Positions 22,290-64,000 of a stretch of 64,000 bases of DNA are shown here, piece after piece (position 1 is the stretch's first letter; each line of letters opens with the position of its first letter). The stretch covers positions 28,476 to 92,475 of the forward strand of contig JAOUMJ010000004.1 in NCBI GenBank assembly GCA_029881495.1, given 5' to 3'. The notes under the pieces are model-generated. The model was given only the letters and a program-made list of their open reading frames with translations, was not told the DNA's origin and made no database searches. The translations under genes and the position numbers were made by a program. Source of the stretch: Nitrospinota bacterium (GTDB taxonomy: Bacteria; Nitrospinota_A; UBA7883; JACRGQ01).

Positions 22290-22305
22290 GGGTGTGGGAG
22301 CGGGT

Positions 22306-23556
22306 ATGAAAGGCGTTGTCGGTCCGGCTGTTCGGTTGATGTGGGGCGTTCTATTTTTCATTGCTCTTCTCCACGTAGAATCGCATGCCGCGGAGATCTC
22401 CGGTTATATCGAAGGGGAGGCCAGGATATTTCCATCTTCTCCTCTTTACGACGGGCAGGAGAACCACTCCGGCTCAGTTGCGGTACTGTCGGAGTTTTAC
22501 CAGGAGCTCGGCCCAACCTCCGCAATGACTATCACGCCATTTGCCAGGTTGGATTCGGGTGATCCGAACAGGACCCATTTCGACCTGAGGGAGTTCTTCT
22601 TCCTTCTTCATGGGGAGTGGTGGGAGGTTCGCGCCGGTATCGACAAGGTCTTCTGGGGTGTGACGGAATCCGTGCACCTTGTCGACATAGTGAACCAGAC
22701 AGACATGCTTGAATCGTTTGACGGTGAGGAGAAGTTCGGTCAGCCGATGCTGAAACTCTCAATTGCGGGAGACGTCAAAGGGATCGATCTTTTCATTCTC
22801 CCCCTCTTCAGGGAGAGAAATTTTGCAGGCGAGGGGGGGCGTTTGCGCAGTGAAATACTTGTGGAAGGGGACGAGGCCGCTTATGAAAGCGTAAACAGGG
22901 AAAAGAGTGTCGATTTTGCGGTGCGTTACAGCTATACGTCGGGGGGATTCGATCTTGGCATTTCGTATTTCAAGGGGACCGGCAGGGAGCCGTCGCTTCG
23001 CCTTAAACGGAACGACATGGGATTTCCAGAGATAGACGCGAAAGGGAACATTCATCTCTTCCCGTATTATGAGCAGATCACGCAAGCGGGGGTCGATATG
23101 CTGCTGGTGCTCGATGCGTGGCTGCTGAAACTGGAGTCGATATACAGAACGGGGCAATCCGACAGGGACTGGATGAAAAACGATTTCGCATCTTCGGCGC
23201 TCGGCATTGAATACACGGTATACGGGGTCGCCGGTAGCGGCGCCGATGTAGGCATTCTCGGGGAGTGGGTTTACGACGACAGGGGTGATTCCGCCGTCTC
23301 CGCGCTCAACAACGACCTGATGGCGGGGCTGAGGTTTTCACTAAATGACGTTTCAGGCTCCACCGCGCTCCTTGGATATATCCATGATTATAAAAATAGC
23401 TCTTCTTTCCTCACGCTGGAGGGGAGCAGAAGGCTAAATGACCATCTGAAGCTGGAGCTGCAGGGATTTTACTTCCTCTTCTCCCCGGAGGATGATCCGT
23501 CATGGGTGATAAGGAGAGACTCATTCATGGAGGCTCGGCTCGTCTGGTATTTTTAG
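22306..23556 (+). CDS. putative outer membrane beta-barrel protein
   Basis: Signal peptide (LFFIALLHVESHAA), alternating beta-strand pattern, terminal aromatic (ends ...RLVWYF). Confidence 0.45.
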   Translation: MKGVVGPAVRLMWGVLFFIALLHVESHAAEISGYIEGEARIFPSSPLYDGQENHSGSVAVLSEFYQELGPTSAMTITPFARLDSGDPNRTHFDLREFFFLLHGEWWEVRAGIDKVFWGVTESVHLVDIVNQTDMLESFDGEEKFGQPMLKLSIAGDVKGIDLFILPLFRERNFAGEGGRLRSEILVEGDEAAYESVNREKSVDFAVRYSYTSGGFDLGISYFKGTGREPSLRLKRNDMGFPEIDAKGNIHLFPYYEQITQAGVDMLLVLDAWLLKLESIYRTGQSDRDWMKNDFASSALGIEYTVYGVAGSGADVGILGEWVYDDRGDSAVSALNNDLMAGLRFSLNDVSGSTALLGYIHDYKNSSSFLTLEGSRRLNDHLKLELQGFYFLFSPEDDPSWVIRRDSFMEARLVWYF

Positions 23557-56486: not shown

Positions 56487-57614
56487 TTACCGCCTCTTTG
56501 CTGCTGTTGGAAGAGGGATCGTTTCAAGGAATTCCCGGTTGCTGGCCGACTCTTTGAATTTATCAAGGAACATTTTGTATTTTTCTCCCCGCCTGTCGTC
56601 GAGCATTGCCCTGCGCAGAAGCGTCGCCTTTGCGAGGATTTCGGGGTCGAGGAGTTTTTCCTCTTTTCTTGTTCCCGATTTTTGAAAGTTCATCGCCGGA
56701 AAAATTCTGAGGTCGGCCAGGCTTCGCTCAAGGACGAGCTCGGAGTTTCCGGTCCCTTTGAATTCCTGGAAGATCAGTTCGTCCATTTTGCTACCGGTAT
56801 CGACCAGGATGGAGGCGATAATGGTCAGGCTCCCCCCGCCGTCGACATTCCGCGCGGAGCCGAAAATTTTTCTCGGGAAATCAAGCGCCCCGGTTGATAG
56901 ACCTCCGGTCATGGTCTTTCCGCGGTTATCCATATCTCTGTTGAACGCCCTACCGAGTCTCGTGAGGGAATCGATCATCAGCACTACGTCCCTTCCCGAC
57001 TCAACGAGGCTCTTAACCCTTTCGAATATGAGGTGTGCTACGCGGATATGCTCCTTGTTTGGTTTATCGAAATCGGTCGCGATCACCTCGCCGCCAATGA
57101 GACGCTTGAAGTGCGTAGACTCTTCCGGCCTTTCGTCGGCGAGATAGATTATCTGAGCCATATCCGGATAATTTTTCTTCATCCCCATGGCCATTTCTTC
57201 CATTATGGTGGTTTTACCGGCTTTCGGCGGAGAGACTATCAGGAAGCGTTGCCCCTTTCCGATAGGTATCAGCAGGTCGATAATCCTTGTGGAGACAGTA
57301 TTCTGATCGGTTTCAAGAATAAGCTGTTCATTCGGATCGATGGCTGTCAGTTTGGGAAACGGCACCCGTTTTTTTATTTCGTCCGGGCTTCTTCCGTTTA
57401 TCGATTCTATCGATTCAAGGGAGATGTTCGGCTGGTTTTTCAGCGCCTTCCCGGTTCCGGTGACTTCCATGCCTGTTTTAAGCCAGTTGGTCTGAATGAG
57501 TTTTGGCGACAGGTATGGATCGGTCGGCGCGATCCCTATGTCGTTGGTTACTGATCTTAAAAAACCGAATCCTTTCGGAACGATTTCAAGAATGCCTGTT
57601 ACGGATTCTCCCAT
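56487..57614 (-). CDS. rho: transcription termination factor Rho (short N-terminus)
   Basis: OB-fold RNA-binding motif GILEIVPKGFGFLRS; Walker A PPKAGKTT; Q/R loops; C-terminal ATPase domain. ATG 57614 with AAAGG RBS; ORF track start is 57677. Confidence 0.88.
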   Translation of the reverse strand: MGESVTGILEIVPKGFGFLRSVTNDIGIAPTDPYLSPKLIQTNWLKTGMEVTGTGKALKNQPNISLESIESINGRSPDEIKKRVPFPKLTAIDPNEQLILETDQNTVSTRIIDLLIPIGKGQRFLIVSPPKAGKTTIMEEMAMGMKKNYPDMAQIIYLADERPEESTHFKRLIGGEVIATDFDKPNKEHIRVAHLIFERVKSLVESGRDVVLMIDSLTRLGRAFNRDMDNRGKTMTGGLSTGALDFPRKIFGSARNVDGGGSLTIIASILVDTGSKMDELIFQEFKGTGNSELVLERSLADLRIFPAMNFQKSGTRKEEKLLDPEILAKATLLRRAMLDDRRGEKYKMFLDKFKESASNREFLETIPLPTAAKRR

Positions 57615-57768
57615 TTCTATACCTTTATAAGTTTTTTGGTTGCATTCCAAAACGTGGAATAAACAGCCGAGCCGCAAAGTTCAAATGCGGTAGGCGGATA
57701 TCAAAAAATTCGAACTAGAAAAGTCGTATGGTCCCCTAGTTGGAGTTCTAATAATGACTATACAGGAT

Positions 57769-58191
57769 TTATCCCAGGTTTTCTATTCTTTCCTGAGGGG
57801 TGATAACCTCTGTCAGGCGTACCCCAAATTTTTCATTAACAACTACAACCTCTCCCTTTGCGACAAGCTTGTCGTTAACGAGTACGTCAAGAGGTTCGCC
57901 GACAAGTTTGGTAAGTTCGATGACCGATCCCTGTCCCAGCTGAAGAAGGTCGTTGATCAGCATTTTCGCCTTCCCCATCTCAACCGAAAGGGTAAGCGGA
58001 ATATCAAGCACGCGTGCGTACTTGACATCGTCCCGGGAGGATGGCTGTCCCGTGGCAAGGGCCCCGCCGCCGCTGGTCAATCCTTCAGGATTGCTTTCGA
58101 CCTCTTCGCGGAGCATCTCGCGCTGTTTTTCAAGGTCGTCAGCCGCGGCTCCCCAAAGGTCGTCATCAGATTCCAAATTATCATCAACCAT
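57769..58191 (-). CDS. fliN: flagellar motor switch protein FliN
   Basis: 140 aa; C-terminal SpoA domain (LDIPLTLSVEMGKAKMLINDLLQLGQGSVIELTKLVGEPLDVLVN). Confidence 0.85.
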   Translation of the reverse strand: MVDDNLESDDDLWGAAADDLEKQREMLREEVESNPEGLTSGGGALATGQPSSRDDVKYARVLDIPLTLSVEMGKAKMLINDLLQLGQGSVIELTKLVGEPLDVLVNDKLVAKGEVVVVNEKFGVRLTEVITPQERIENLG

Positions 58192-58195
58192 ATTT

Positions 58196-59200
58196 CTACC
58201 CGATTTTACTTTCTTTCTCTATTCCATGTCTAGGAACAATGCTTGATATCCTGATAGCCTTGTTCCCCCTTACAACACCCGGATATCCCCGGAATTTTTC
58301 TACTTCGCTCACATAGATGGGGAGTTCGTCGGTAATATCCCGTTCCAGCTGTATTATCGACCCCTCTTTGAGATTTATGAAGTCCCTTGTCGACATTGTT
58401 GCTTCTCCCAGTTCCACCTTGATATCTACCTCGGCCTGCGCGAGCCTGTCGCTGAGCCTTGTTACCCATGTAAGGTCGACTTCCAGCTGATCGCTCTGGA
58501 AACCTGCTTTGAGTTTTCCGATGATAGGTTCGATGGTCGAGTATGGAAGACATATCGTCAACGTACCGGCAAACTGATCCATCTCCACTTCGTAAAGGAC
58601 AACCACAACAACGTCCGTGGGGGGGACGATGGCGGCGAACTGCGGATTCACCTCCGAGCGTACAAACTGCATCTGGCATGGGTGAACGGGTTGCCATGCT
58701 TTCTGGGTGTCTCTCAGCATCATGAGAACGACCTTTTTTATTACTCTCTGCTCGATGGCGGTGAAGTCGCGCCCCTCTATCTTCATCTTCGCTTCTCCCG
58801 AGCCGCCGAAGAATGAATCTACAAGCGCGAACGCCATTTTCGATTCGACTACCAGAAGTGCGAATCCTCTGAGGGGATTTATTCGGAAGATGTGAAGGGA
58901 TGCCGGCACCGGCAGGGATTTTATGAATTCGCCGAATTTCACCGTATCGGTTGAGACCGCGCTTACGTCGAGAACTTTCCTGAGGGCCGCCGAGAGGGAG
59001 TTTCTGAAGATACGCGAGAATCTCTGGTTGATGATGTCGAGAGTCGGCATCCTTCCCCTGATGATCCTCTCCTGGCTGGTAAGGTCGTAGGGAACCACGC
59101 CCGAATCGTCGCCGAGGTCATCGGCTTCGGTCTCTATCTCTCCGTCGCTTACGCCTCGTAATAGGGCGTCAACTTCGTCCTGAGAAAGTACCTGACTCAT
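58196..59200 (-). CDS. fliM: flagellar motor switch protein FliM
   Basis: N-terminal LSQDEVDALL CheY-binding motif; 334 aa. Confidence 0.9.
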   Translation of the reverse strand: MSQVLSQDEVDALLRGVSDGEIETEADDLGDDSGVVPYDLTSQERIIRGRMPTLDIINQRFSRIFRNSLSAALRKVLDVSAVSTDTVKFGEFIKSLPVPASLHIFRINPLRGFALLVVESKMAFALVDSFFGGSGEAKMKIEGRDFTAIEQRVIKKVVLMMLRDTQKAWQPVHPCQMQFVRSEVNPQFAAIVPPTDVVVVVLYEVEMDQFAGTLTICLPYSTIEPIIGKLKAGFQSDQLEVDLTWVTRLSDRLAQAEVDIKVELGEATMSTRDFINLKEGSIIQLERDITDELPIYVSEVEKFRGYPGVVRGNKAIRISSIVPRHGIEKESKIG

Positions 59201-59263: not shown

Positions 59264-59794
59264 CTATTGAATAACAAATTCAACAAAATATACGTTTTTT
59301 ACGACTCCGGTTTTAATCCTTGAATTTATTCTTGTTAGAATCTGCTCTTTGAGCTTGAATTTCCCTTCCACGGTCAATATTTCATCGACTGTCTTGGAAG
59401 AGAGTACCGTTATTACCATATCTTTCACCTGAGGCATCCGGTTTGCCAACTCCTCGGCCACCTTCGGATTGTTAAGCTCAACCTGCATGGTTACCTTCAG
59501 GAAGCGCTTCCCCTCATCCCCTGAAAGGTTGACGATGAAAGGCTCGAAAGCGACCATCTCGCCTAGTTTAAGGGGGTCGTACTGCTCCTGGGCTTCGACC
59601 GCCTGCTTTGACTGGCCTCCGGCCCCTTCCTGCACAGCCGCGTCCTTTTTAATGAAGTTGGAATAGATCAGGAATCCGCCTACGCCGAGAAGTGTCAGAA
59701 GGAGAACGATTATGACAATAAGCAGTACCTTGCTTTTACCTTTAGCCGGTTTTTCTCCACCAGACTCTTCATCCATATCTTCTTCAATAGCCAT
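59264..59794 (-). CDS. fliL: flagellar basal body-associated protein FliL
   Basis: 176 aa; single N-terminal TM helix and periplasmic domain; between motB and fliM. Confidence 0.75.
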   Translation of the reverse strand: MAIEEDMDEESGGEKPAKGKSKVLLIVIIVLLLTLLGVGGFLIYSNFIKKDAAVQEGAGGQSKQAVEAQEQYDPLKLGEMVAFEPFIVNLSGDEGKRFLKVTMQVELNNPKVAEELANRMPQVKDMVITVLSSKTVDEILTVEGKFKLKEQILTRINSRIKTGVVKNVYFVEFVIQ

Positions 59795-59811: not shown

Positions 59812-60621
59812 TTAAAAAGAATCCTTTTCGAATTGTTTTATCACAATTTCAACCCGTCTGTTGTATTTCCTGTATTTATCGCTAATGTTCTTAACGCGAG
59901 GCTTGTTTGAAGAGTAGCCCTTCGCCTCCATCCTCATAGTATCTATTAAGCCGGTCGACATAAAGTAGTTATATACGGAGAGGGCCCTGGCGGAGGAAAT
60001 TTCCCAGTTGGAAGGGAAATTTTTCCCCTTTGCCGGAATATCGTCCGTGTGTCCCTCAATACTTATGTTGTTTTTCGAGATGGAGAGAATGCCGGCGATC
60101 CTGTTTAGAATCGGTTCAAGCGATTTTTTTATTTCGACGCTCCCCTTGTCGAACATCGCGTCATCCGGGATCGATAGTGCCACATCTTCGCCTCGCTTGA
60201 TCACCTCGACGCCGCTCCGCTCTATAGTGATTAAAAGCGTCTGAGCCTCTTTTTCGAGAAGTTTGCGGGATTCGGCTATCTCCTGGTCGTAGGTGATCAC
60301 CTCTTTCAATTCGTCCCAGCCTAGTGAATCGGGCTTGAAGTTCGGGACGACATCCATAGCGGAGGAGCGGGAGCTTTGCGTAAGGTTCAGTGCGCCAGCC
60401 GCGCCGGAGAAAACATTAAACATCTCCTTTATCACCTTGTCGTCCATTGATGACATTGAAATGAGCAGAACGAAAAAGGTGATAAGAAGCTGAAGGAGAT
60501 CGGAGAAGGTGACCATCCACGCATCCTTGTCAGGTCCTGCTTCTTCTGTTTCTTCATCCTTTTTTCCGCTTTGCCAGTCGGTGATTTTGGAGTGTTCGGT
60601 TCCCTTTTCCTGTTCGCCCAT
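59812..60621 (-). CDS. motB: flagellar motor stator protein MotB
   Basis: TM helix with conserved Asp (WMVTFSDLLQLLITFF); C-terminal OmpA-like peptidoglycan-binding domain (SNWEISSARALSV, NRRVEIVI). Confidence 0.85.
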   Translation of the reverse strand: MGEQEKGTEHSKITDWQSGKKDEETEEAGPDKDAWMVTFSDLLQLLITFFVLLISMSSMDDKVIKEMFNVFSGAAGALNLTQSSRSSAMDVVPNFKPDSLGWDELKEVITYDQEIAESRKLLEKEAQTLLITIERSGVEVIKRGEDVALSIPDDAMFDKGSVEIKKSLEPILNRIAGILSISKNNISIEGHTDDIPAKGKNFPSNWEISSARALSVYNYFMSTGLIDTMRMEAKGYSSNKPRVKNISDKYRKYNRRVEIVIKQFEKDSF

Positions 60622-61331
60622 TATGTCAGCCTCTGTTTTTTAAGAACTATTTCGATCCTGTCCTTGAACTTTTCCCTTGTGGCGGTATTACCGCCGAAAA
60701 TGGGACGGCTGGAACCATATCCCGATACCGAGATCCTTCTCTCTTTTATTCTTTTGGTGCTTATAAGGAATTGTGCGGCGCTTCCCCCTCTGGCGATGGA
60801 GAGTATCTCCTCGTTTGGGAAATAGCCCCCCTTGTGCCCACCCTGCGACGCGTGCCCTATCAGGTTTATTTCACCGCTTATCGATACGAGTAGCGGGATT
60901 ATCCTGGTTATTATTTCCGTGGCCTTCGGCTTGAGCTCCGCCTTCCCTTTGTCAAACGCGAGGTCGCCGGAAAGGATAAGTACTACTCCGTCTTTCCCCA
61001 GATTCAGGATTACTTCATCTGCGATATCCTTTTCAAGGCTGAATTTTTCAAGTTTGCGAATGAATTCCATGATGTTGTATTCCCTTGATGATAACTCCGA
61101 CGAGGGGGGTACAGTGTTGCTCCCCTTGCTGGTTCCTGGTGAAAGTCCGCCGGGGAGGATACCTACCGTTCCGAGGAGGGAGCCGAGCGCCTTTCGCGTG
61201 CGGTTGTCGTCCTTTACCGCCAGTGAATTCAGAACGATGAAAAAAGCGAGCAGCACCATATTGAGCGTGGTGAAGAGAACGGTGGTTGAATCACCGCGTT
61301 GATTGAAGAAGGTATTGGAGAGAATTTTCAT
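60621..61331 (-). CDS. MotB-like OmpA-domain protein, second paralog (apparently lacking conserved Asp)
   Basis: TM helix TTVLFTTLNMVLLAFFIVL with no Asp at the expected position; C-terminal OmpA-like region (GYGSSRPI, RIEIVL). Overlaps motA and motB ends. Confidence 0.55.
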   Translation of the reverse strand: MKILSNTFFNQRGDSTTVLFTTLNMVLLAFFIVLNSLAVKDDNRTRKALGSLLGTVGILPGGLSPGTSKGSNTVPPSSELSSREYNIMEFIRKLEKFSLEKDIADEVILNLGKDGVVLILSGDLAFDKGKAELKPKATEIITRIIPLLVSISGEINLIGHASQGGHKGGYFPNEEILSIARGGSAAQFLISTKRIKERRISVSGYGSSRPIFGGNTATREKFKDRIEIVLKKQRLT

Positions 61332-62089
61332 TTAAAGGATGATTTCCTGAACTTCGGCATGAGGTAGCCGTGAAGTTTTTGCTCAAGTATGCGCGGGTTG
61401 TCCCCCGCGGCAATGGAGACGACACCCTCCAGGGAGAGTTCAAGTATGAGTATTTCGTCTGAACTTTTCTTTTTCAGTTTTCCAGCCATAGGAATAAAGA
61501 CAAGGTTGGCCAGAACCGCGCCGTAGAATGTCGTGATAAGAGCGATCGACATTGAAGGTCCGATTTTCGAAGGGTCGTCCATCTGCTGAAGCATAAGAAC
61601 CAGGCCGATCAGTGTGCCGATCATCCCGAAAGCGGGGGCGAAAGTACCGAAAGTCAGAATAATTTCATAACCGGATTTATGCCTCCCTTTCACGTTATCG
61701 ATCTCGTTTTCAAGGATGGCATTTATAACCTGCGGTTCCATGCCGTCTATGGCTAGCTGTATCCCTTTCTGAAGAAAAGGGTTTGCTATTCTGCCGGTTT
61801 CGTTTTGCAGTACCAGTATTCCGTCGCGCCTCGCTTTTTGTCCCAGTTCCACAAGCAGGGGAATAACTTTTTCGGGATTTTCAGTTGAGCCAAATATAGT
61901 CTTTTTAACCACCGCGATAGCAGTCAGAATATCCTTAAATGGATAATTAACCATTACCGCCGCGAAGGTTCCCCCCATAACGACAAGGACCGAAGGTATG
62001 CTGATAAAGAAGGGGAGATTTGCACCGCCTATCGCGGCTACAATCAGGCCTAGCCCCCCGACAATGCCGGCTATTGTTGCTATATCCAT
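61328..62089 (-). CDS. motA: flagellar motor stator protein MotA
   Basis: 253 aa, 4 TM; TolQ/ExbB/MotA-family C-terminal region (FGTFAPAFGMIGTLIGLV, ALITTFYGAVLANL). Confidence 0.88.
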   Translation of the reverse strand: MDIATIAGIVGGLGLIVAAIGGANLPFFISIPSVLVVMGGTFAAVMVNYPFKDILTAIAVVKKTIFGSTENPEKVIPLLVELGQKARRDGILVLQNETGRIANPFLQKGIQLAIDGMEPQVINAILENEIDNVKGRHKSGYEIILTFGTFAPAFGMIGTLIGLVLMLQQMDDPSKIGPSMSIALITTFYGAVLANLVFIPMAGKLKKKSSDEILILELSLEGVVSIAAGDNPRILEQKLHGYLMPKFRKSSFK

Positions 62090-62194: not shown

Positions 62195-63532
62195 TCATAT
62201 CTGTTTTTCTGTTTCAACGCTTCCTTCACCATTGTAAACTTTTTTCTCGGTTTCTCCACACTCTTGGAGAGAGTATTTGAACAGGACGGGACCTACAAGG
62301 AGGTTAACGGCTACCGAAGCGATAATGATACTTGATACCGTATACCCGAAAGACGGGAAATTCGATTCAAGGATCATAACAAGTCCGAGCGTAACCCCTG
62401 CTTGCGGGACGAATCCGCTCCAGAGATGTTTTTTGACCAAAGGTTTCTCCTTCATCAGGGAGGCAACGCCTGTGGTTGTAGCCCAAATAAGCAGCATTCT
62501 TAAAACGACATAGAAAAGGGCGATTCCCCAAGTTGTTTGGAGCGCGTACAGGTCGATGGATGCCCCTGCCATTGCGAAAAAAACAACGAATACCGGCATT
62601 GAACCTTTTTCGAGGGAGAGTACGAACTCGTTTCCAGAAGCAAGGAGGCTCCGAAGCGCAAACCCTGCCGTCACGCAAAGCACAAGTTCATTCAGGCCGA
62701 GCATGGCGGATAACTCGCTACAGAGCACAGCAAGTCCGGAGATGAAGATGAAATTTTTGCTGGCGAATCCGCTGAAAAAAACGGCGACGATTCCGGCTAT
62801 TGCCCCGCCGAGGGCCGCGGACATAATGACCGTCTTGCCCGTTGCCAGAAATATGGACCATGCAGTAGTATCTGCGCCGGGCTCCGATTGGTAGAAGTGG
62901 AGCGTCATTGAGACAGTAAGGGCGAAAAGCATGATAACCAGCACGTCTTTTAGCACGGAAACCGACAGGACGGTTTGGGAAACCGTCCCTTTCGCCCCGG
63001 TTTCGTTGATTACCGCTATGGCCGCATCCGGCGAGTTTACCGTCGCGATGATTCCGATAAATATCGCGGCGAATAGCGCGTGTCGCGGATCAGCCAATCC
63101 TCCAAAGCCAGCCTTAAAGAAAACAAGGAACGAGGCGAATACCGTAAAAAAGACCGTGATAACAAAAATAGTGGTAAGCCCTGTGATCTTCATTATCCTG
63201 TTTTGGAGTTTGCCCCATTCGAGTTCAGCTCCAGCCGATAGCGCGATAAAGGAGAGGGCGAGGTGGTTGATGAACTGAAGCCTGTCGAGATCTTCAATAG
63301 AAAGGATTTTCATTCCCCATGGGCCGAACAGCATCCCTCCGATTATGTATCCGGTGATCATCGGAAGTTTCATTCTTCCCGACGCCTTTCCGATGAAGAG
63401 CGAGGCAAGAAGGAGGAATCCGAGCACAGCGGTTGTATACACAGGTTCATGCGCGGGGAGGGCGCCGGGGAGGGAGGGGAGTATGGACATTGTCACGAAA
63501 AGAACGGAGAGAATGAAAAGCCAGACGATCAT
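62195..63532 (-). CDS. cation:proton antiporter (CPA family) membrane protein
   Basis: ~445 aa, about 12 TM helices; ATG at 63532 overlaps upstream gene stop (ATGA). ORF track start is 63595. Confidence 0.7.
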   Translation of the reverse strand: MIVWLFILSVLFVTMSILPSLPGALPAHEPVYTTAVLGFLLLASLFIGKASGRMKLPMITGYIIGGMLFGPWGMKILSIEDLDRLQFINHLALSFIALSAGAELEWGKLQNRIMKITGLTTIFVITVFFTVFASFLVFFKAGFGGLADPRHALFAAIFIGIIATVNSPDAAIAVINETGAKGTVSQTVLSVSVLKDVLVIMLFALTVSMTLHFYQSEPGADTTAWSIFLATGKTVIMSAALGGAIAGIVAVFFSGFASKNFIFISGLAVLCSELSAMLGLNELVLCVTAGFALRSLLASGNEFVLSLEKGSMPVFVVFFAMAGASIDLYALQTTWGIALFYVVLRMLLIWATTTGVASLMKEKPLVKKHLWSGFVPQAGVTLGLVMILESNFPSFGYTVSSIIIASVAVNLLVGPVLFKYSLQECGETEKKVYNGEGSVETEKQI

Positions 63533-64000
63533 GATATCCCCCGAAAGACCTTTGTTATCAGGTAGGGTGCGATCATTTCGCTTACCATTACGCATATGAG
63601 TATTACTGAAAAGAGGATCTCGGAGTTGTTCCCGGGATAGGTTGTAAGGAAAGCGAAACCTATAGTCAGCGCCATGGCCCCCTGCGATGCGAGGGCGAAC
63701 CCGGCATTTGCGGGAAACGTCATGGAGCGATCGAGGCGTGGAGCCGCGTATGCCATGAACAGATACTTTCCGGCGAATCTGAAAACAATTATCAAGAAGG
63801 AAAGGAGGAGGCCGAATCCACCGGGATAGGAGAACATAATGCCTGCGATTATCAGCATGAGGATGTAAAGTGGTTTTTCGGCATTAATAATGACGGCGTG
63901 AAACTTGTCGTCCTTTGTAAGCATGTTGGCCAGATACATTCCGCATACAAGATTTATGAAAAGGGGTGATACCTGAAGTATCCCTCCAACGCCGCTGCTG
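63529..64000 (-). CDS. polytopic membrane protein, C-terminal part (start outside window); possible antiporter-associated subunit
   Basis: Hydrophobic helices; ORF track begins at an internal Met (63939) but the frame is probably open to the window edge. Confidence 0.4.
   Translation of the reverse strand, partial: SSGVGGILQVSPLFINLVCGMYLANMLTKDDKFHAVIINAEKPLYILMLIIAGIMFSYPGGFGLLLSFLIIVFRFAGKYLFMAYAAPRLDRSMTFPANAGFALASQGAMALTIGFAFLTTYPGNNSEILFSVILICVMVSEMIAPYLITKVFRGIS

Follow-up and report, generated by a model that had tools for sequence, protein, structure and literature searches.

A conserved MotB paralogue without the channel aspartate, encoded between motA and motB in Nitrospinota and other bacterial phyla

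The 64,000-nucleotide stretch of DNA considered here, referred to throughout as the window, comes from a Nitrospinota bacterium (assembly GCA_029881495.1, contig JAOUMJ010000004.1, positions 28,476 to 92,475 of the forward strand) and carries on its minus strand a group of flagellar stator genes in which motA is followed by two genes for MotB-like proteins with OmpA-like domains. A preliminary description of the window had reported this arrangement together with overlapping stop and start codons, and both are seen in the open reading frame (ORF) calls, in the sequence itself and in the Pfam matches: motA and the proximal motB-like gene share an ATGA, and the proximal and distal copies meet at a TAATG (Table 1). 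The ATGA probably reflects translational coupling, such that the proximal protein, termed MotB′ here, would be made together with MotA and with the distal protein, a canonical MotB/PomB-like stator subunit. As judged from its alignments, MotB′ is a true MotB paralogue that has no channel aspartate.

The resemblance of MotB′ to MotB runs through the whole protein. Comparison by hhalign of the MotB′ family (alignment A2) with the canonical MotBs encoded next to it (alignment A3) gave a probability of 100% and E = 1.3e-50, with no gaps from the N-terminus through the transmembrane (TM) helix and the plug segment, and the plug segment matches that of MotB column for column. For the pair encoded in the window, identity is 29% over 238 amino acids. 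When the MotB′ family profile is run against the PDB the best matches are complete MotB chains, namely that of Clostridium sporogenes (6YSF, E = 1e-47) and that of Bacillus subtilis (6YSL, E = 5e-43), the latter over residues 1-230 and up to 1-250 in the alignment, and for the distal MotB of the window the matches are MotB 6YSF (E = 5e-34) and PomB (E = 1e-25). The AlphaFold2 monomer model of MotB′, which has a mean predicted local distance difference test (pLDDT) score of 74.7 and is silent on subunit packing, contains a TM helix at about residues 15-38, a short plug-like helix at 42-55 (pLDDT of about 60), a disordered linker at 57-81, a further helix at 82-100 and, between about residues 107 and 232, an OmpA-like domain. 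Foldseek matches this model most closely to the solved periplasmic domains of three proteins, MotS, PomB and MotB, with a probability of 1.00, and against the Pfam MotB_plug model the window protein scores 16.5 bits, the cut-off being 24. Taken from these comparisons, MotB′ is homologous to MotB along its full length, from the TM helix through the plug-like helix and linker to the OmpA-like domain.

The feature that sets MotB′ apart is found within the TM helix, where proteins of this kind are generally taken to carry an aspartate without exception. The distal MotB has its aspartate as Asp41 in WMVTFSDLL, within WMVTFSDLLQLLITFF, and this residue, picked out in the preliminary description by its TFSDLL motif, is invariant in the A3 alignment of distal motB genes. 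The helix of MotB′ reads TVLFTTLNMVLLAFFIVLNSL and has no Asp or Glu anywhere along it, again as had been described from its TTLN, the second T of which is Thr22 and lies at the position of Asp32 of Escherichia coli, Asp24 of Vibrio alginolyticus and D24 of B. subtilis. The equivalence rests on three independent alignments, made with HMMER, MAFFT and hhalign. In the HMMER alignment of the family profile to B. subtilis MotB (6YSL) the Ser/Thr of MotB′ faces D24, hhalign of A2 against A3 yields the same Ser/Thr-to-Asp equivalence, and in a MAFFT alignment of 153 MotB-like sequences the column holds D in 82 and S, A, T or G in 71. Within the latter 71 Asp-less sequences the replacement is Ser or Thr in 47, Ala in 23 and Gly in one. 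Comparison with characterised MotB proteins, which had been proposed as a check, thus places no Asp or Glu at the corresponding point of the proximal helix, and from the absent carboxylate MotB′ is presumed to be non-conducting.

Two ways in which an acidic residue might be regained were considered and rejected. The residue D14, some eight positions N-terminal of the site, has a canonical counterpart in D33 of the distal MotB and is not a compensating substitution, and an N-terminal extension of the ORF cannot supply one, as the 236-amino-acid frame is already the longest possible. The rest of the helix has stayed close to that of MotB, with a periplasmic half that is nearly identical (LLAFFIxL in MotB′ and LLxTFFVL in MotB). 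In the MAFFT alignment the helix of MotB′ has no Trp at its cytoplasmic end and is often closed by an Asn-Ser pair. The differences between the two helices are centred on the Asp, on this missing Trp and on the positions aligned with M34 and W45 of E. coli MotB, which are residues of the MotB-MotB dimer core (PMC10659934). Both of these last positions are Asn in the MotB′ clade to which the window belongs, a feature that is not kept across the family.

Relatives of MotB′ were not recovered by a single-sequence scan of the genome contigs and came to light with a profile-based scan. Among proteins, a first search returned 34 relatives of 233-259 amino acids that share xTTLNMLLLAFFIVLNSIAV followed by ALGSLLGTLGIL, except for the most distant of them, P0034, which is a normal MotB, and with a profile the set then grew, at E ≤ 1e-5, to 325 proteins. 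When 1.8 billion cluster representatives were searched exhaustively with a profile, the top 150 matches contained about 120 short proteins, about half of which are Asp-less and contain the LLAFFI core, and the top matches include at least 50 clusters at 50% identity. On the basis of source names and the titles of metagenome-assembled genomes (MAGs), MotB′ is carried by Nitrospinota, Nitrospirota (including Candidatus Manganitrophaceae), SAR324, Candidatus Lambdaproteobacteria, Candidatus Tectomicrobia, Thermodesulfobacteriota, Candidatus Desulfofervidaceae, Thermosulfidibacter takaii and unclassified 'Deltaproteobacteria', and the closest relatives of the window protein are Nitrospinota-type. 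Intact ORFs of steady length, about 230-265 amino acids, are present at 44 distinct loci from several phyla, and since the Asp-less protein is conserved at all of these its occurrence lies far beyond chance.

The genes are labelled variously in the databases as 'OmpA family protein', 'MotB' or 'hypothetical', with the consequence that counts of stator sets are inflated in such genomes. The 'OmpA family' gene that lies between motA-1 and motB-1 in Desulfovibrio vulgaris (DVU0048-0050) may be a further case; a search by locus tag gave nothing. No description of a family of Asp-less MotB paralogues was found in the searchable literature, outside which most subscription journals fall, and the Asp goes unmentioned in the text of a 2025 survey in mBio of MotAB evolution (PMC12505986).

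The gene order around MotB′ was followed in 55 loci, corresponding to 44 distinct MotB′ genes, with a locus counted only where at least 200 bp of flanking DNA was available on the side in question. An Asp-bearing MotB is encoded directly after MotB′ in 36 of the 38 loci with enough downstream DNA, and motA directly precedes it in 41 of the 43 with enough upstream DNA. The intergenic distances within the triad are mostly between -4 and +16 nucleotides, with the -4 and -1 overlaps recurring in related loci, and fliL follows the triad in most of them. Nitrospinota-type loci have the layout NhaP-NhaP-motA-B′-B-fliLMN-rho, and elsewhere the triad is found inside a fliK-flgD-flgE...fliLMNOPQR-flhB operon or a fliFGHIJ...fliLMNOPQ arrangement, remaining unbroken despite the changed surroundings, including in the Tectomicrobia and Desulfofervidaceae loci. 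MotB′ is not a local oddity of the window; it is part of a conserved motA-motB′-motB module that spans several phyla and is accompanied by a PomA-like A subunit.

The surroundings differ again in a Nitrospirota-type locus from a hydrothermal vent metagenome (L025:4194-6381, the protein of which is also named as coming from Candidatus Manganitrophaceae), where the triad lies among cheB, cheR, cheY-like and cheZ genes, without fliL, and is bordered by genes for a PilZ-domain protein and an EAL-HDOD protein, which suggests that this stator set could be under cyclic di-GMP control. Two loci depart from the triad itself. In the first, from the MAG Nitrospinia bacterium OFTM173 (L008:5199-6678), motA and an Asp-less motB′ are followed by no canonical motB, the downstream genes being an unrelated small DUF-like ORF and then ORFs of 129 and 229 amino acids on the opposite strand. 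This locus is the only clear exception and hints that MotB′ can serve as the sole B partner of a MotA. In the second, from a MAG labelled as uncultured Rickettsiales (L015:5959-6552), a protein of 197 amino acids combines a MotB′-type helix, SLNIILLAFFIAL, with a strongly degenerate C-terminal domain and is encoded near fliL-fliM without an adjacent motA or motB. This aberrant, short homologue may be a further-reduced derivative of MotB′.

The constraint on the two B-type proteins was compared as mean pairwise identity by region over the same 16 paired loci. For MotB′ and MotB, respectively, this amounts to 0.63 and 0.73 in the TM helix, 0.37 and 0.38 in the post-TM (plug) segment, 0.23 and 0.23 in the linker and 0.35 and 0.41 in the OmpA domain. 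The TM helix is the most conserved region of MotB′, as it is of MotB, and the pattern of selection on MotB′ copies that on MotB. These values bear directly on the view that MotB′ is a decaying and functionless duplicate of motB, for which the loss of the key catalytic residue and the degenerate peptidoglycan-binding motif in the clade of the window (GHAS for GHTD) might be cited. Decay would not be expected to leave intact ORFs of constant length at so many loci in several phyla, nor at least 50 clusters at 50% identity among the top matches of the exhaustive search, nor a strongly conserved TM motif with a region-by-region constraint equal to that of MotB, and on the strength of these conservation data pseudogenisation is effectively refuted. 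As the arrangement has been kept across several phyla, MotB′ is probably a working and hitherto undescribed part of the motor.

The change in the OmpA-like domain is of more restricted scope. The residues of OmpA-like domains that contact peptidoglycan, as known from OmpA-peptide structures, are the Asp of GHTD and the Arg of LSxxRA. In the window MotB′ the first motif is GHAS, with Asp replaced by Ser, and the second is LSIARG, in which the Arg is kept; the stretch at about residues 158-185 reads GHAS...NEEILSIARG where GHTD...NWELSxARA is usual. The Asp of GHTD is also absent from most of the Nitrospinota-type MotB′ clade, and the SAR324-type and other members retain GHTD...NWELSxxRA...NRRV. 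From these motifs it appears that peptidoglycan binding may be altered locally in the clade of the window and that it is not lost across the MotB′ family.

The A subunit of the triad is of the sodium type in its sequence. The window MotA is matched best in NCBIfam by the PomA and MotP models, and in the PDB by C. sporogenes MotA (E = 3e-61) and V. alginolyticus PomA (E = 3e-56), and alignment to the latter shows that the equivalents of T158, T185, T186, G154, A182, P151 and P199 are all retained. The three PomA threonines are reported to be required for function and to be conserved in every sodium-driven stator, and one Na+ site of PomAB is built solely from oxygens of PomA, provided by T158, T185 and T186 and by the carbonyls of G154 and A182 (PMC10374538). 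The three threonines, along with the equivalents of G154, A182, P151 and P199, are kept in all 41 full-length MotAs examined beside a MotB′, although C. sporogenes MotA shares the sodium-type residues as well, so that the residues alone do not fix the ion used. In the window a gene for an NhaP-type exchanger lies directly upstream of motA, where it provides context only as regards the module, and such an exchanger is found at the same place in six loci (L001, L002, L016, L019, L027 and L055). Taken together, the MotA threonines and the adjacent Na+/H+ exchangers of the Nitrospinota-type loci indicate that the stator of the triad is probably Na+-driven, and the occurrence of NhaP-type genes with PomA-type threonines suggests a link between the sodium cycle and the motor. 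As a separate observation, the relatives have a tandem pair of NhaP-type genes, with PTS-EIIA and P-II genes ahead of it.

Ion transfer might proceed without the carboxylate if a Ser or Thr hydroxyl of MotB′ acted with the PomA threonines to coordinate Na+, in keeping with the retention in triad MotAs of every residue of the PomA-only Na+ site and with the Ser or Thr that stands in for Asp in 47 of the 71 Asp-less sequences. The other replacements, Ala in 23 sequences and Gly in one, can coordinate no ion and make such a site very unlikely. To our knowledge, moreover, there is no stator, ExbD or TolR that works without its Asp.

The gene order of the locus on the minus strand is NhaP-type exchanger, motA, motB′, motB, fliL, fliM, fliN and a Rho-like gene (Table 1). 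The Rho-like gene directly follows fliN, at the place taken by fliOPQR in other lineages, and its position is kept in the Nitrospinota-type loci L001-L004, L016, L019, L054 and L055. Beyond motA-motB′-motB no further stator genes are present in the 64-kb window, and an Rfam scan of the window gave no match. The remainder is ordinary chromosomal DNA with ruvAB, mutL, tatC, pyrF, an RND efflux system and several PAS histidine kinases. Two ORFs in it are without a Pfam match, one of 136 amino acids upstream of the NhaP-type exchanger (63529-63939) and one of 420 amino acids downstream of RND/MMPL-type transporter genes (22294-23556, no match at E ≤ 1e-3).

Table 1. Genes and gene junctions of the stator locus, in window coordinates
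Feature	Length (amino acids)	Position	Strand	Basis
NhaP-type Na+/H+ exchanger	466	62195-63595	minus	Pfam Na_H_Exchanger 80 bits
motA / pomA-like stator A subunit	253	61328-62089	minus	Pfam MotA_ExbB 104 bits
motA stop/motB′ start overlap, ATGA, 4 nt		61328-61331	minus	read from sequence
motB′, Asp-less MotB paralogue	236	60621-61331	minus	Pfam OmpA 45.6 bits; family profile
motB′ stop/motB start junction, TAATG, 1-nt overlap at 60621		60619-60623	minus	read from sequence
canonical motB/pomB-like stator B subunit	269	59812-60621	minus	Pfam MotB_plug 57 bits, OmpA 59 bits
fliL	176	59264-59794	minus	Pfam FliL 95.5 bits
fliM	334	58196-59200	minus	Pfam FliM 222 bits + FliMN_C
fliN	140	57769-58191	minus	Pfam FliMN_C 88.5 bits
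Rho-like ATPase	396	56487-57677	minus	Rho_RNA_bind + ATPase domain

The interpretation favoured here is that MotB′ is a functional, selected and anciently duplicated B-subunit paralogue that would work within the MotA pentamer, most probably as one half of a MotB/MotB′ heterodimer (MotA5:MotB1:MotB′1), and a probability of roughly 0.45 is attached to it. In such a scheme the three proteins would be made together from one translationally coupled three-gene module, MotB′ would take up a B-subunit position inside the ring of MotA, and the resulting stator would possess two anchors and two plugs with a single carboxylate coupling site, the Ser, Thr or Ala of MotB′ (Thr22 in the window) standing at the ion-binding Asp site of MotB. 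The location within the pentamer is suggested by the helix, since a mere anchor helix would not be expected to keep the pattern of a channel helix together with a plug-like helix, nor to be the most conserved region of the protein. Heterodimers are favoured over homodimers because the triad is fixed and its genes overlap. A single old duplication is the simplest and a likely origin of MotB′, although it is not firmly established: a neighbour-joining tree of the full alignment sets the 71 Asp-less sequences apart in one exact bipartition, with a bootstrap of 49% and a mean Jaccard index of 0.985.

A number of points weigh against this interpretation. The current 5:2 models have both Asp residues working alternately, and substitutions of D32 in E. 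coli MotB are non-functional and dominant-negative, so that a unit with one Asp might stall. The bootstrap of the Asp-less group in the full-length alignment is low, and the periplasmic part alone fails to recover the group (Jaccard 0.93, 0/100), so that the grouping is only approximate. The replacement of GHTD by GHAS means that the anchoring role may be altered in the clade of the window. Finally, the locus with motA and motB′ and no motB (L008) is easier to reconcile with a MotB′ homodimer than with a heterodimer that is obligate.

This last locus leads to the possibility that there are two kinds of stator in the cell, with MotB′ homodimers forming MotA5MotB′2 units that are non-conducting and bind the rotor passively, as a brake or clutch, as a placeholder or as a structural spacer, beside active MotA5MotB2 units. 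Asn pairs in a helix core favour self-association, and the clade of the window has Asn at both positions aligned with the M34 and W45 dimer-core residues, which, along with L008 itself, leaves room for homodimers; a TM helix and plug conserved as in MotB would also be in order for a protein of this kind. The Asn residues are not family-wide, however, the SAR324-type proteins having V or A at the second position and the group of 256-amino-acid proteins having F at the first. The tight coupling of the three genes in 36 of 38 loci speaks for a fixed co-stoichiometry and not for a regulated brake, and a constitutive, non-functional competitor would cost torque. Two classes of stator are hence regarded as improbable.

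The main alternative to a heterodimer within the pentamer is that MotB′ sits outside it as a periplasmic scaffold or anchor, with its helix on the outer face of MotA or on FliL, where it would help sodium-type stators to dock in the manner of MotY and the T-ring or of FliL. The sodium-type stators of Vibrio do need an accessory protein with an OmpA domain, MotY, which the MotB′ profile finds at E of about 1e-10, and the module always occurs with PomA-like A subunits (41 MotAs examined) and usually with fliL. Loss of the Asp is likewise what would be expected once a protein no longer lines the channel. What such a peripheral anchor has no need of is the helix pattern of MotB and an ungapped plug-like helix, both of which are kept, and no region of MotB′ is better conserved than its TM helix. 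MotB′ also has no N-terminal domain of the MotY type, and MotB, PomB and MotS are much closer to it than MotY is. A role outside the ring, MotY-like in function, is accordingly judged to be quite unlikely, even as the foremost of the alternatives.

A bolder extension of the favoured reading would be that a 'half-site' rotary motor has been conserved over long periods, namely an asymmetric stator of 5:1:1 composition (MotA5-MotB-MotB′) with only one ion-coupling carboxylate; this is considered somewhat unlikely. If true, such a motor would operate in the sodium-type flagellar motors of Nitrospinota, Nitrospirota, SAR324 and relatives; alternation between two Asp residues would not be obligatory, and the arrangement might set a different ion-per-revolution 'gear'. 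The wider interest of the family lies in the fact that the current mechanistic models of the 5:2 rotary motors (MotAB, PomAB, ExbBD and TolQR) assume two identical B subunits whose Asp residues bind ions alternately. A widespread and selectively kept Asp-less B paralogue, encoded with MotA and a normal MotB, amounts to a natural experiment on this two-Asp rule. Should MotB′ enter the pentamer, it would show if a single coupling site is enough and why a second B chain is needed, be it as an anchor, a plug or a means of breaking symmetry. Should it stay outside, it would be an accessory of a novel type, serving the stators of sodium-type motors in lineages without MotX and MotY.

Amongst the known accessory proteins, MotY, the T-ring protein of Vibrio and Pseudomonas motors with sodium-type or dual stators, resembles MotB′ in being an OmpA-like, peptidoglycan-binding partner of PomAB-type stators. 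Unlike MotB′, it is secreted, has its own N-terminal domain and possesses no MotB-like TM helix or plug. An identity with MotY is rejected, as MotB′ has a TM helix and plug of the MotB type and MotY chains match its OmpA domain only (E of about 1e-10, against 1e-47 for MotB). The preliminary description had left a choice between a regulatory or structural variant of the B subunit and an accessory of the MotC/MotD type. The former survives as a live reading. The latter does not, because the protein is MotB-like over its full length, its best PDB matches are complete MotB chains and it scores 44 bits against the NCBIfam MotD model, the cut-off of which is 283; no equivalog in the NCBIfam scan of MotB′ reaches its cut-off. 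The MotC of Sinorhizobium is a soluble protein of the periplasm and has no relationship to OmpA domains.

Systems in which one pentamer-forming A gene is accompanied by two paralogous B genes are found outside the flagellum in the AglR-AglQ-AglS gliding motor of Myxococcus and in ExbB-ExbD1-ExbD2 Ton operons. The B subunits of these non-flagellar systems differ from MotB′ in being of the TolR/ExbD type, without OmpA domains, and as far as we know the B paralogues of both AglRQS and the ExbD operons retain their Asp. AglQ and AglS may pair either as heterodimers or as homodimers (PMC9389320). The nearest precedent in gene order is the motA-motB1-motB2 operon of Aquifex aeolicus, which likewise has one motA of the sodium type and two motB genes in tandem (PMC4525482). 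The N-terminal and TM regions of Aquifex MotB1 and MotB2 are 97% identical and their periplasmic parts differ, and either copy, made into a chimera, supported motility (PMC4525482). In the window, by contrast, the TM helices themselves differ (TVLFTTLNMVLLAFFIV against WMVTFSDLLQLLITFFV) and one copy is without the Asp.

The closest likeness is to the B subunits MotB, PomB and MotS (e.g. 6YSF, 6YSL and 8BRI), with which MotB′ shares a single N-terminal TM helix with an LLxxFF core, a plug-like helix, a flexible linker and an OmpA-like domain, as well as a gene placed immediately after motA with an overlapping start and a homology that reaches E values of 1e-43 to 1e-50. It differs from them in that its helix has neither the Asp nor the cytoplasmic-end Trp, and in occurring in addition to a canonical MotB, with L008 as the one exception. 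As it fails one defining feature, the Asp, MotB′ is, by its sequence, best described as a MotB-derived paralogue family and not as a MotB in the functional sense.

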